Below are positions 17,699-24,632 of a stretch of DNA of 64,000 nucleotides, in pieces. This DNA comes from an uncultured Chlamydiae bacterium. Its GTDB lineage: Bacteria; Chlamydiota; Chlamydiia; Chlamydiales; JAJFMB01. Where the stretch lies: positions 2,932,462 through 2,996,461 of the forward strand of contig CAVOJR010000001.1 in NCBI GenBank assembly GCA_963696295.1. The letters are read 5' to 3'. Positions within the stretch are counted from its first letter, which is position 1. Each line of letters starts with the position of its first letter. The notes beneath the pieces are model-generated. The model did no database searches. It had not been told where the DNA came from and worked only from the letters and a program-made list of their open reading frames with translations. Position numbers and translations under genes: made by a program.

Positions 17699-18861
17699 TG
17701 AAAGCGGCCATTTTGAAAGCGGGGCGGGAAAAATCTGTTCTGCAGCGCCATCCCTGGATTTTCTCCGGAGCCATCGACAAATTGCCCAAATTTGAAAACG
17801 GCGATTTTTTGCCCCTGCAAACCCAGGATCGAAAACATTTGGGCTTTGCCTATTTCAACCGGAATTCTAATATTATCGGACGAATCGTCTCCTTCGATCA
17901 AACAGAACCCCTGGAAGCGATCCGCAAGAACCTGCGAGAGGCGATCGAACTGAGAAAAGGGTGGTTTTCTTCCTCCGCGACGAATGCCTACCGGCTGGTC
18001 AACGGGGAGGGGGACGGCATACCGGGGCTGATCGTCGATAAATATGATAAAACTTACGTTTTGCAGCTGACGACGATGGGGATGGACCGTTTGCGTTCCT
18101 GGATTGTGGAGCAGATCGTAGAGCTTTGTCGCCCCAAGACTATTTTTGAAAAATCGCGCCTGCCCGCCCGCCTGGAAGAGGGGCTGGCCGATCAGGTCGG
18201 TCTTTTATGGGGCGAAGAGGTGGAAAATGTGGAAATTCAGGAAAACGGCCACCGTTTTATGGCTGGTATCGTCGAGGGGCAAAAGACCGGCTTTTTTTTA
18301 GATACCCGCGAGATGCGCGCTTTAGTGCAGCAGTTTGCCAAAGGGAGGCGGGTGCTCAATTGTTTCTCCTATTCGGGGGGCTTTAGCGTCTATGCCGCGA
18401 AAGGGGGCGCTGCCGCGATTAGAAATGTCGACTGTTCGGAGCGGGCTATGGAGCTTGCGCGGCAAAATATGGCCCTGAACGAGATTGAGATTGAGCAAAA
18501 TTTTGTCGTCGATGATGTCTTTACCTATTTGCAGGATCACGCCATCGATGAGAATCTGGTCATCCTCGATCCGCCGGCGCTTGCCAAGAAGCGGGGGGAT
18601 CTTAAAGGGGCTTACCGGGGCTACCTGCACATCAATCGCCTGGCGATGCAAAAGATGCCGCCAAACTCTTATCTTCTGACCTGTTCCTGCTCCTATCACA
18701 TGGATGAAACGACCTTTCAAAAGATTATCTTTAAGGCAGCTCAAGCGGCCGGGCGCAGTGTGCGCATCCTAAGCCGGCACCGGCTCGCTGTCGATCACCC
18801 GATCAACCTGTTCCATCCGGAAGGGGACTATCTTAAAAGTCTCTTTTTGCAATTAACCTAG
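17698..18861 (+). CDS. rlmI: 23S rRNA m5C methyltransferase RlmI-like (PUA + class I SAM methyltransferase)
   Basis: The N-terminus LKAGREKSVLQRHPWIFSGAI is an RlmI/YccW hallmark. TGFFLDTRE, VLNCFSYSGGFSV and ILDPPA are SAM-MTase motifs. ATGA overlap with the preceding gene. Confidence 0.8.
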   Translation: MKAAILKAGREKSVLQRHPWIFSGAIDKLPKFENGDFLPLQTQDRKHLGFAYFNRNSNIIGRIVSFDQTEPLEAIRKNLREAIELRKGWFSSSATNAYRLVNGEGDGIPGLIVDKYDKTYVLQLTTMGMDRLRSWIVEQIVELCRPKTIFEKSRLPARLEEGLADQVGLLWGEEVENVEIQENGHRFMAGIVEGQKTGFFLDTREMRALVQQFAKGRRVLNCFSYSGGFSVYAAKGGAAAIRNVDCSERAMELARQNMALNEIEIEQNFVVDDVFTYLQDHAIDENLVILDPPALAKKRGDLKGAYRGYLHINRLAMQKMPPNSYLLTCSCSYHMDETTFQKIIFKAAQAAGRSVRILSRHRLAVDHPINLFHPEGDYLKSLFLQLT

Positions 18862-19953
18862 TGAATCAGCTTTAATATTTTCAATCGAAACCTGCAACTT
18901 GATTTGATGTAATTCCTTTTGGATCAGGCCTCCTTTATCGGCGCGGATCTCCCAAAAGTAACCCTGTCCAAAACTTCCCCCTTTAATCAGGGTGGCATCG
19001 GTAGCGGTGACTGGGTGGTTCAGCGGGTTGGAGCCTAGGGCTTGTGAGGTTAAAATCAGTTTGCCGGGCAGGTAATCGCAAACATATTTGCGGATGTTTT
19101 GCTCTTCAAAGGCGTTGTCCGCAAAGTATCTGATAGGCGTGTAGCTTACGAAGAGATCGACATTTTTCGCGAGCAGTTCTTTTAATTCTTCGTGAGATTG
19201 CTCAGTACCTTCGACATAATCCCTGTTTTGAAAATAGGCGGGGGCGTTCTTATCCAGGGTGGCTAAACCGCCAATCCCGAGGATACGGACGTTTTTCACA
19301 TCGATAGTGGCTAAATTCAAATATCCTGAGGCGAATTCTTCATCGAGGCTTTTGATCACATCGAGATTTTCAAACGGCCCGGGGACAATGATGATTTTCA
19401 GGCCAGATTTTTTTAGGCGTTTAAAGTGGGAAATTTTATCCAGCAGGGCGCTTTTGCCTTTTTCGATGAGTTTGAGTATTTTTTTGGCAGATACGGCAGT
19501 TATCTCTTTAGAATCATCCTTCTCAAAACTGGCTATGAATTGCTGGATATCGGAGAAAGCTTCCTGGGAATTGAATTCTTCATTGACGTGCTGAAAGGCA
19601 TGGCGGTAAGCGCTTTGCTCAGCCTGATTTAAAGGATTTCCAAATAGACTAGTCAGGACGACCAGATCGGCCCGTTTCTCATTCGCATAGTCTAATAGCT
19701 TTTCTAACCTCTCCCAGTCTTCATTGACATTCGAGGCGTAGATGAGGTTAACCCCTTTTAGCGGAGGGGGTTCTGGAATGTAGTCATCGTCCAAATCCTC
19801 TGCGGCTTCAATCTCCTCGTATCTCTCAATCGTATACGCGCGAGGCAAAGCCGTGAAGACTTCCTCTTCCTCTTCGCAGATCCAATAATACAACAGAGTC
19901 GCCAAGATAAAAAGGAGAGGCGCGAGATAAAGGGTGTTGACTGTGGCAAGCAT
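18853..19953 (-). CDS. N-terminally membrane-anchored hypothetical protein with an acidic linker; possible degenerate phosphoesterase-like fold
   Basis: TM anchor MLATVNTLYLAPLLFILATLLYYWI, then EEEEE. Segments such as ADLVVLTSLFGNP and KIIIVPGPFENLD recall the strand order of metallophosphoesterases, but the canonical metal ligands are missing. The track start (GTG at 19980) lies inside a hairpin, so I prefer the ATG at 19953. Confidence 0.5.
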   Translation of the reverse strand: MLATVNTLYLAPLLFILATLLYYWICEEEEEVFTALPRAYTIERYEEIEAAEDLDDDYIPEPPPLKGVNLIYASNVNEDWERLEKLLDYANEKRADLVVLTSLFGNPLNQAEQSAYRHAFQHVNEEFNSQEAFSDIQQFIASFEKDDSKEITAVSAKKILKLIEKGKSALLDKISHFKRLKKSGLKIIIVPGPFENLDVIKSLDEEFASGYLNLATIDVKNVRILGIGGLATLDKNAPAYFQNRDYVEGTEQSHEELKELLAKNVDLFVSYTPIRYFADNAFEEQNIRKYVCDYLPGKLILTSQALGSNPLNHPVTATDATLIKGGSFGQGYFWEIRADKGGLIQKELHQIKLQVSIENIKADSLG

Positions 19954-19970
19954 GATTAACCTGAAGTTGA

Positions 19971-19998
19971 CGATTTTCACCGGGAGTAGTGAAAATCG
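19971..19998 (-). other. Perfect 10-bp-stem hairpin between the actin-like ATPase gene and the downstream gene
   Basis: CGATTTTCAC-cgggagta-GTGAAAATCG. There is no T-tract, so it could be an attenuator or RNA-processing element rather than a strong terminator. Confidence 0.45.
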
Positions 19999-20014
19999 TC
20001 AATGGATTCAAATA

Positions 20015-24098: not shown

Positions 24099-24111
24099 TA
24101 CAAGGAATAAA

Positions 24112-24504
24112 TTACAGCAATGTAATTGGGAATGGGGAGTAGAGGTTGATATAATCAACAACTCTTTGAATAACTGGGCTAGATACGTGCTTCCAGCCTA
24201 AGTTTTCAATACCCTTAACAATGAAATCTGGTGGTGTTTCGCTAAATGTGCGAGCCACGACTTGTCTTGCCAACAAACCGCCGACGCAATAAGCAATACC
24301 TTCAGCAAAATCTGAAAGTTCTTTTTTCATTTCTGTGCTGATTTTTGTCGCGTCGAAGGATCTGTTAACAACGCCATTCCATGTGGTATTGAAACCCGTT
24401 GCGGCCATTCTACCAACGGAAGTTACTGTTAAACCTGCTCCATAAAGACTAGCGCCATACGCAGCGCCCCAACCTGCTACATTTAAAAAACTATTAACGG
24501 ACAT
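24112..24504 (-). CDS. Small Gly/Ala-rich protein, family member 5 (130 aa, most divergent)
   Basis: MSVNSFLNVAGWGAAYGASLYGAGLTVTSVGRMAATGFNTTW..., a shortened central region, and a conserved C-terminal block ending ...DYINLYSPFPITLL. Confidence 0.8.
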   Translation of the reverse strand: MSVNSFLNVAGWGAAYGASLYGAGLTVTSVGRMAATGFNTTWNGVVNRSFDATKISTEMKKELSDFAEGIAYCVGGLLARQVVARTFSETPPDFIVKGIENLGWKHVSSPVIQRVVDYINLYSPFPITLL

Positions 24505-24559
24505 ATTATTCTCCTTTTTTTGGTTTATATTCGACTCACTTCGAATCGATTAAGCGGTA

Positions 24560-24588
24560 ATCATATCAAATCAAATATTAATAATCAA
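24560..24588 (-). promoter_or_regulatory. Candidate sigma70-type promoter upstream of paralog 5
   Basis: The minus strand reads TTGATT-17 nt-TATGAT within an AT-rich 128-bp intergenic region. Confidence 0.45.
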
Positions 24589-24632
24589 TAAAGAAAACAT
24601 TAATGTTTATATTTTTATAAAAATAATCGTTT

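Follow-up and report, generated by a model that had tools for sequence, protein, structure and literature searches.

An actin-like ATPase gene with a partner gene, and a neighbouring array of orphan small-protein genes, in an uncultured Chlamydiae bacterium

Introduction

In the crenactin-arcadin and ParMRC systems, the gene for an actin homolog neighbours that for a small helical protein, which binds the filament through a short conserved peptide. BeeR is a MamK-like actin of Verrucomicrobiota that forms a three-stranded tubular filament and whose function is unknown (PMC11929497). Saltatorellin is a MamK-like actin of Saltatorellota in the Planctomycetes-Verrucomicrobia-Chlamydiae (PVC) superphylum, and its function is also unknown (bioRxiv 10.1101/817700). 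Chlamydiae have no FtsZ, and their division relies on MreB (bioRxiv 10.1101/817700). Here, we describe a locus in a stretch of 64,000 nucleotides from an uncultured Chlamydiae bacterium (contig CAVOJR010000001.1, positions 2,932,462 to 2,996,461; hereafter the window), in which a gene for an actin-like ATPase is followed by a gene for a partner protein and preceded by five tandem genes of a family of small proteins.

An earlier description made from the letters alone (the sequence-only reading) had proposed that all these genes make up one uncharacterised module. Our results indicate that, on balance, the locus probably consists of two transcriptionally separate elements lying side by side, an actin-partner operon and an array of orphan helical-hairpin genes, and that the link between them is positional. 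The evidence comes from a new clade of actins, from the recurrence of the actin-partner pair in other loci, and from the signals and gene orders that set the small genes apart. Other loci are designated by L numbers and individual homologs by P numbers, and the coordinates of the features are collected in Table 1.

Results

The ATPase carries the nucleotide-binding motifs of the ASKHA superfamily, which align with their MamK counterparts. The phosphate-1 motif GIDIGTSH, the phosphate-2 motif DIGAGTGD and the adenosine motif TGxQGQ were invariant in 19 homologs, whose alignment had a mean identity of 66 %. The sequence-only reading had recognized these motifs and had left the length at 421-425 amino acids (aa). 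The start is most likely ATG 21280, because a GGAGGA Shine-Dalgarno sequence precedes it and its Met is invariant in the family alignment, and the length was corrected to 421 aa. A database search found 25 close homologs (56-76 % identity, 413-483 aa), and the named ones belong to metagenome-assembled genomes (MAGs) of Parachlamydiaceae, Waddliaceae, and Planctomycetota. A pattern scan of genomes for the actin returned only two already-known MAGs, and a scan of metagenomes only two short contigs.

In a profile search of the PDB, MamK ranked first (5jyg, 5ljv, and 5ljw; 6e-8), followed by 8r2n (4e-6), deposited as 'Actin/actin family protein' and taken by us to be the BeeR filament, and then by MreB. 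Residues ~45-230 of the ATPase failed to align with MamK or MreB in this search. The NCBIfam models for MamK (NF040964) and BeeR (NF053558) scored 59.2 bits and 54.2 bits against cut-offs of 400 and 530, over residues 210-424 and 236-425 only, which places the protein outside both families. The scores of the NCBIfam MreB models were 12-24 bits against cut-offs of 293-516 (12.5-23.8 against 293-366 for TIGR00904 and PRK13927), and the NCBIfam matches to FtsA and EutJ were much weaker than those to MamK and BeeR (EutJ on the N-terminus, E 0.054). In Pfam, MreB_Mbl (PF06723) reached 33 bits against a gathering threshold of 27 on the C-terminal half only, and weak matches were also obtained to Alp7A_like_C (Pfam) and phrog_691 (PHROGs). 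The best relatives are therefore filament formers (MamK, BeeR, MreB, Alp7A, and ParM-type proteins) and not Hsp70, kinases or EutJ, in agreement with the divergent actin fold assigned to the protein before. Because the ATPase is closest to MamK and BeeR yet below both family cut-offs, it represents a new clade of MamK-like bacterial actins. It presumably polymerises with ATP, since its nearest relatives form filaments and its nucleotide motifs are intact. No relatives were found in 72,556 plasmids by tblastn or in viral contigs, which argues against a ParM-type role in partition. There were no mam or other magnetosome genes near the ATPase gene, whose neighbours are acs, ribD, nfi, PGA_cap, DUF423, and an RlmI-like methyltransferase gene.

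Judged from gene order, the actin and partner genes form a conserved two-gene module. Of ten independent loci whose downstream flanks could be used (33-68 % GC), eight had the pair; these eight span 36-68 % GC and include high-GC, apparently non-chlamydial organisms without the small-protein family. The partner directly adjoins the actin in five loci (window, L006, L001, L007, and L017). In L008 and L018 (68 % GC), the two are separated by a single unknown gene of 372-403 aa (L008 2318-4991; L018 4245-6425), and the partner of L016 (9393-11471) carries a fused coiled coil of ~380 aa at its N-terminus. No partner was found within 10 kb of the actin in the Waddliaceae and Planctomycetota MAGs.

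The signals around this pair were conserved as well. The promoter TTGACA-N18-TATAG(C/A) was found upstream of the actin gene in four loci (window, L006, L001, and L007) with unrelated spacer sequences, and the corresponding site in L016 is TTGACA-N17-TACACT. This conservation indicates that the actin operon is transcribed as a separate unit. A stable hairpin occurs at the actin-partner junction in five of the six loci that were folded (window, L006, L001, L017, and L016, not L007); its structure is kept and its sequence is unrelated between loci. Such a pattern is typical of intercistronic elements that adjust two cistrons to different expression levels, and the junction hairpin may act in this way.

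For the partner protein, the sequence-only reading had given 366-375 aa with a transmembrane (TM) segment, an acidic run, and a hairpin in the 34-bp gap before it. All of these features were found, and ATG 19953 is the likelier start because GTG 19980 is part of the hairpin stem (3' arm) and lacks a Shine-Dalgarno sequence. The conserved core is 41-66 % identical to the product of the gene downstream of the actin in L001, L006, L007, and L008, and a hidden Markov model (HMM) of the partner also detected it in L016, L017, and L018. The TM anchor and acidic linker occur in only two of the eight partners, those of the window and L006; the anchor is absent from L001, L007, L008, L017, and L018, and a coiled coil is present instead in L016. 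Membrane anchoring, which had been put forward as a feature of the module, is thus not conserved.

The core resembles Metallophos_3 (PF14582) weakly, at 22.1 bits against a gathering threshold of 28.2, which leaves it outside that family. The start of the model matched the first 70 core residues in three of five homologs, all below threshold (best E 1e-4). None of the metal-ligand motifs DxH, GD, GNH(D/E), H, and GH was among the invariant columns of a five-sequence alignment, in which the equivalent motif positions are ASNxxED, LT..NPL, and PGxxEN and the sole invariant His is H127. If the fold is phosphoesterase-like, the partner is therefore most likely catalytically dead. Most likely, it works on the filament as an adaptor or regulator without catalytic activity. 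No relatives of the partner were found on viral contigs.

The single module that had been proposed holds for the ATPase and its partner. The small genes, in contrast, are split off by a terminator and by the separate actin promoter. A small gene lies beside the actin in two of five contexts, the window (acs-ribD-nfi-PGA_cap-[small x5]-actin-partner) and L006 (acs-ribD-small-actin-partner, with P0035 of 188 aa as the small protein), both from one lineage. The actin does not adjoin the small gene in the others: in L011, ribD and the small gene are followed by a terminator, a promoter, and an unrelated gene; in L009/L010, the order is sufBCDS-sua5-small up to the contig end; and in L019, the small gene is convergent with the type III secretion system (T3SS) genes sctT/sctS. 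L006 does not count as independent evidence because it belongs to the same lineage as the window, with identities of 83 % for Acs, 74 % for RibD, and 76 % for the actin, and the same acs-ribD synteny. The position of the small gene after ribD is kept in three related genomes. No small-family gene was present in the fetched flanks of eight other actin loci, and no plasmid or viral-contig relatives of the family were found. Small-actin adjacency is confined to one lineage, and actin-partner adjacency is broad. The co-occurrence on which the one-module proposal depended was thus seen in the window and L006 and not in the other loci compared, leaving a weak positive case.

Additional features were observed in these neighbourhoods. 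In the window, nfi (endonuclease V) and a PGA_cap/CapA-like gene (24633-26238, minus strand) lie between ribD and the array as an insertion relative to L006. The partner gene and a convergent PUA/SAM-methyltransferase gene (RlmI-like, 17698-18861, plus strand) share 9 bp at their 3' ends (18853-18861), so that no terminator fits between the two. Directly downstream of the actin-partner pair, L007 encodes a MORN protein with six repeats (5773-6750), and on the 31-kb JGI contig of P0011 three large MptE-like proteins flank the pair, so that MORN-repeat and MptE-like/MORN_2 proteins recur beside it. A PRC-barrel protein follows the partner in L008. In L019, P0032 (222-608, plus strand) is convergent with 657-1784 (minus strand), coding for Bac_export_1/SctT and Bac_export_3/SctS. 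Two independent assemblies, L009 and L010, break 110-165 bp downstream of P0038 (10381 to contig end), which could reflect an unresolved repeat such as more tandem copies.

Table 1. Features of the actin-partner operon and the small-gene array in the window.
Feature	Position	Strand	Description
Array c5 to c1 with ATPase and TM-anchored protein	18853-24632	-	all co-oriented
Partner protein	18853-19953	-	366 aa from ATG 19953; 375 aa from GTG 19980
Partner conserved core	about 18901-19758	-	~290 aa (residues 75-360); weakly Metallophos_3-like
Partner acidic linker	about 19759-19875	-	
Partner TM segment	about 19876-19953	-	N-terminal; Kyte-Doolittle 2.2
Intercistronic hairpin	19967-20002	-	perfect 14-bp inverted repeat, 8-nt loop, no T-run; in 34-bp gap
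Actin-fold ATPase	20015-21280	-	421 aa from ATG 21280; ORF reaches GTG 21292 (425 codons)
Actin operon promoter	21314-21343	-	TTGACA-N18-TATAGC, sigma-70-type
Intrinsic terminator closing the array, after c1	21365-21385	-	9-bp GC-rich stem and T9
Paralog c1	21391-21825	-	144 aa; second in unit B, a duplicated gene pair
Weak hairpin upstream of c1	21875-21891	-	
Paralog c2	21901-22335	-	144 aa; first in unit B, a duplicated gene pair
Promoter of c2	22395-22423	-	TTTACA-17-TATAAT; 11/12 consensus positions
Decayed copy (3' fragment)	22478-22880	-	no start codon or promoter; own terminator 22478-22496 kept
Terminator after c3	22932-22954	-	
Paralog c3	22962-23396	-	144 aa; second gene of two-gene unit A
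Weak hairpin upstream of c3	23446-23462	-	
Paralog c4	23472-23912	-	146 aa; first gene of two-gene unit A
Leader stem-loop of c4	about 23945-23962	-	equivalent to that of c5
Promoter of c4	23972-24000	-	TTTACA-17-TATAAT; 11/12 consensus positions
Terminator after c5	24079-24099	-	
Paralog c5	24112-24504	-	130 aa; most divergent copy; monocistronic; HMM E 9e-60
5'-leader stem-loop of c5	24531-24549	-	UCGAUUC-loop-GAGUCGA; just downstream of -10
Promoter-like site of c5	24560-24588	-	TTGATT-17-TGnTATGAT

For the small proteins, the sequence-only reading had described a Gly/Ala-rich N-terminus, a variable centre, and a conserved C-terminal block (C-block), and had assigned them to no known family; alignments, composition counts, and database searches bore this out. 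The N-terminal 45 residues comprise 23 Gly/Ala/Ser, 6 aromatic, and 2 charged residues. The paralogs share the invariant N-terminal segment NSFLNVAGWGAxYGxSLYGAGL and the invariant C-block RQVVARTFSETPPDxIVKGxENLGW.H..SPVIQR, between which the centre varies in length and sequence. An alignment of ten members (126-188 aa) contained 8 invariant positions, including W12, G83, Q95, P106, G117-W118, and S123-P124, and the proteins are basic, with a net charge of +4 to +6. The AlphaFold model built from this alignment (pLDDT 74, pTM 0.58) showed helices at 6-50 and 58-100 and two short helices, so that the small proteins are predicted to form a long helical hairpin followed by the conserved C-terminal block. 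In this model, the Gly/Ala-rich start of helix 1 presumably packs on the conserved end of helix 2, and the variable centre would be the hairpin tip. No classical TM segment was detected (Kyte-Doolittle 15-residue window, maximum ~1.1), the second hydrophobic stretch is merely 11-15 uncharged residues, and the proteins do not have an Inc-type bilobed hydrophobic domain (~40-60 residues with TM-level hydropathy). On an Eisenberg plot, the N-terminal helix (mean hydrophobicity ~0.45, low moment) falls in the borderline 'multimeric TM' zone.

Homologs of the family were few. An exhaustive profile search of 1.84 billion cluster representatives found ~7 distinct ones, P0031-P0035 and P0038, then P0039 via a second profile search. 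A k-mer-prefiltered search retrieved only the window's own copies, and pattern scans of metagenomes and viral contigs gave no match. P0036 and P0037 were rejected as homologs; they are long repeat proteins, one Cna-B-like and one of low complexity. No significant match was obtained in Pfam with 10 members (best E 0.07), and none in NCBIfam, PADLOC, or a profile search of the PDB (best E 0.35); the single weak match in PHROGs was phrog_36739 (E 0.004), of unknown function. Foldseek searches with the model revealed no known fold (best E 1.5 in the PDB and 0.23 in BFVD), and the matches were generic helical hairpins. Resemblances to ESCRT-III, SipB, the ATP-synthase c-subunit, and T7 gp14 were rejected because all E values exceeded 0.2. 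By these searches, the small proteins form a true orphan family, and all contigs on which it has been found so far are chlamydia-like.

The five intact tandem genes and the decayed copy were confirmed on the minus strand, and the decayed copy, which is real, proved to be a 3' fragment only. The intact paralogs were 70-95 % identical to c1 (A1 alignment) and matched the family HMM with E ~1e-60. The match of the decayed copy was weak (E 0.0018); it covers the last part of helix 2 and both the RQV and PPD motifs, and one frame reads ..AGYALRQVAAQAFSPP..PPPDIV.., the family counterpart being AGLATRQVVARTFSETPP. It contains a tandem repeat of 107 bp x 3 (22544-22867, 95 % matches), and its frame is destroyed because 107 bp is not a multiple of three. 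The repeat spacings in the array (510, 1061, and 510 bp) show that the unit c4-c3 was duplicated as c2-c1. In addition, the DNA of c2 and c4 is identical across the 3' halves and c1 has a tail similar to that of c5, and these mosaic copies indicate gene conversion. Between c1 and c5, 23.7/34 synonymous versus 17.3/116 non-synonymous sites were changed in the C-block. The variable centre shows relaxed constraint, with a ratio of non-synonymous to synonymous change (pN/pS) < 1, and no positive or diversifying selection was found there in the paralog comparisons. Purifying selection acts on the N-terminal and C-terminal blocks, and these are real genes, not chance open reading frames (ORFs). Plus-strand ORFs of 65-88 aa (21884-22081, 22876-23142, and 23455-23652) are antisense to the constrained small genes and were judged probable antisense shadows.

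The array reads P-c5-T; P-c4-(t)-c3-T; remnant-T; P-c2-(t)-c1-T (P, promoter; T, terminator; t, weak hairpin). Each small gene has an AAGGAG Shine-Dalgarno sequence 7-9 nt upstream of its ATG. The near-consensus promoters of c4 and c2 count as one observation because they are sited in duplicated DNA. There is no promoter-like site upstream of c3 or c1, where a weak hairpin (GGAGGCATAATGCCTCC) is found instead, and strong GGAGGCGG...CCGCCTCC hairpins with T-runs directly follow c5, c3, the remnant, and c1. The leader stem-loop of c5 and c4 is also present in the small-gene homologs of L006 (about 3463-3484) and L011 (about 746-805) and was lost in c2. It is thus kept between distant homologs, although its z-scores are modest (-1.8 to -2.2), and it might act as an operator or as a 5' hairpin that stabilises the mRNA. 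The strong expression signals noticed before were thus all found, and to judge by them the small genes are built for very high expression.

Elsewhere in the window, 15717-17141 (minus strand) codes for a 474-aa AAA ATPase (Pfam ATPase_2, AAA_22) with a full-length match to PDC-S27, a candidate defence protein in PADLOC (297 bits, E 4e-89). A link between such an ATPase and the actin was rejected, as the AAA ATPase near the actin in L002 is not homologous to that of the window. A 726-aa protein encoded at 1528-3708 (minus strand) has a C-terminal OTU-like cysteine protease domain (E 4e-17); a domain of this eukaryote-like deubiquitinase type fits an intracellular, effector-secreting lifestyle. 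The GC content was 0.606 at 26001-28000 (the ribD/acs region) and 0.382 at 30001-32000, against a window average of ~0.48. No rRNA, tRNA, or Rfam matches were found in the window, and no integrase or phage genes near the array.

Discussion

In our reading of the locus as two separate elements, the sigma-70-type promoter would drive the MamK/BeeR-related ATPase, which would assemble into ATP-dependent filaments. The intercistronic hairpin might protect the upstream cistron or attenuate read-through, so that the filament subunit would be made in excess. The degenerate Metallophos_3-like partner of ~290 aa may then act on the filament without catalysis. In the window and its nearest relative, the TM helix and acidic linker would tether the system to the membrane, and the N-terminal appendage of the partner, which varies by lineage (TM anchor, coiled coil, or nothing), might decide where the filament is attached. 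The array would consist of one monocistronic and two duplicated bicistronic units homogenised by gene conversion, and its products might be an abundant, self-associating, membrane-proximal structural protein.

Several points weigh against this proposal. Polymerisation, the adaptor role, membrane tethering, and the function of the junction hairpin are all steps that we infer. Profile and single-sequence searches of the PDB with the partner gave no meaningful match, and its single-sequence AF2 model had a pLDDT of 35.5, so that any fold assignment is tentative. By the positive-inside rule and the acidic flank after the TM segment, the partner domain could lie outside the cytoplasm, which would contradict direct contact with the actin. 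L006 is a second locus in which the actin lies directly between a small gene and the partner, and in view of this adjacency the small proteins may be functionally linked to the actin. Their absence from the flanks of other actin loci is weak evidence because most homolog contigs are short. Finally, the borderline Eisenberg values may mean that the small proteins are truly membrane-inserted.

That the small proteins, the ATPase, and the anchored protein are one functional system, with the small proteins as cargo, scaffold or filament regulators, seems to us unlikely. In one version, the conserved C-block would dock on the actin as arcadin-2 and ParR peptides do on crenactin and ParM; a conserved block joined to a variable centre would suit an adaptor with a constant docking part, and no other function could be assigned to the small proteins. 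The genes share a strand and are directly adjacent in the window and L006. However, a terminator and a separate conserved promoter stand between the array and the actin, L006 comes from the same lineage as the window, and in L011 the small gene still follows ribD and the next gene is not an actin. Eight actin loci carry no small gene in their flanks, three small-gene contexts have no actin, and the high-GC, apparently non-chlamydial organisms have the actin-partner pair without the small family. A wider proposal, to which we would give little chance, is an undescribed actin cytoskeleton in environmental Chlamydiota and some PVC bacteria, in which a MamK/BeeR-like filament with a pseudo-phosphoesterase adaptor and lineage-specific hairpin accessory subunits, bound through the C-block, would form a stage-specific intracellular structure. 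The hairpin proteins, abundant in this case, could serve as a coat, a cap or a bundling factor of the filament or as its link to the membrane.

We also doubt a reading in which the small proteins have nothing to do with the actin and are chlamydial proteins destined for export or membrane insertion. They would then be substrates of type III secretion or helical hairpins of translocator, needle or Inc type that target the host or inclusion membrane, and would be amplified for dosage or variation. The family occurs so far on chlamydia-like contigs only, the named MAGs of Parachlamydiaceae and Waddliaceae belonging to actin homologs, and the window encodes an effector-like OTU-domain protein. By inspection, the N-terminus, which is uncharged and Ser/Gly-rich with no positively charged n-region, is not a Sec signal peptide, and a predicted helical hairpin with a variable tip and an N-terminal helix in the oligomeric-TM zone would be consistent with export. 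P0032 adjoins the T3SS export genes sctS and sctT, but these are convergent and a single case. Export is also opposed by the hydropathy maximum of 1.1 without an Inc-type bilobed domain, by the non-significant Foldseek matches to SipB and T7 internal virion proteins (E > 0.2), and by the lack of diversifying selection in the paralog comparisons. A non-filamentous ATPase of chaperone-like or enzymatic type (EutJ, Hsp70, or kinase), working with an active downstream phosphoesterase, is quite improbable. All significant matches of the ATPase are polymerising actins (MamK, BeeR, MreB, Alp7A, and ParM), against which stand a divergent N-terminal half and the weak EutJ match; likewise, the weak Metallophos_3 match of the partner is set against a sub-threshold score, one invariant His, and no invariant DxH, GD or GNH(D/E). 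We regard it as extremely unlikely that the array is left over from a mobile or phage-derived cassette, such as one for holin-like or internal-virion-protein-like membrane proteins. The tandem amplification of small genes would fit such an origin, and the matches that point to it, phrog_36739, Phage_holin_3_6 (E 0.6-2), and podovirus internal virion proteins (Foldseek E 0.2-1), are all non-significant. Moreover, the family has no detected viral-contig or plasmid relatives, no integrase or phage genes lie nearby, and its position after ribD is kept in related genomes.

If environmental chlamydiae and other PVC bacteria do have a second actin, MamK-like and paired with a conserved partner, it would be a new cytoskeletal system in a group already known for unusual cell biology. 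BeeR and saltatorellin would gain a sister clade with a genetic partner, which would make their function more tractable. As an orphan family apparently built for very high expression, the small proteins might be a major unstudied component of these cells.

Among described systems, MamK is the best relative of the ATPase in both solved structures and NCBIfam models, and the phosphate-1 (LGIDxGTSH) and phosphate-2 (DIGAGTxD) motifs align directly. MamK with MamJ/MamY follows the same logic, in that an actin is encoded with a non-enzymatic partner that joins the filament to a membrane structure. However, the ATPase is ~75 residues longer, with residues 45-230 unalignable and no magnetosome genes nearby; the partner is unrelated to MamJ/MamY, and the host is apparently a chlamydia-like intracellular bacterium. 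A variable polar N-terminal extension before phosphate-1 is common to the ATPase, BeeR, and saltatorellin. The C-terminal half of the ATPase aligns with the BeeR model and 8r2n, whereas the termini of the ATPase clade are unlike those of saltatorellin, as inferred from published cloning primers (bioRxiv 10.1101/817700). The available parts of the BeeR (PMC11929497) and saltatorellin (bioRxiv 10.1101/817700) accounts do not mention a conserved downstream partner gene.

Coupling of a filament to the membrane via a bitopic partner with an N-terminal TM helix recalls MreB-RodZ and FtsA, although the partner described here has no RodZ-like domain and is TM-anchored in only two of eight cases. ParM and Alp proteins differ in context, as the locus has chromosomal acs-ribD synteny and no plasmid or centromere surroundings. 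Metallophos_3 resembles the partner only at the start of its model, below threshold and without the metal motifs. The docking peptides of crenactin-arcadin and ParMRC offer a possible analogy for the small-family C-block; in contrast to those systems, the small genes are separate units that are rarely beside the actin, and no sequence or structural similarity was detected. Taken together, these comparisons suggest that the locus belongs to a known kind, the bacterial actin systems, and that the actin clade and the orphan family of small proteins are new, as the pairing of the actin with a degenerate Metallophos_3-like partner may be.

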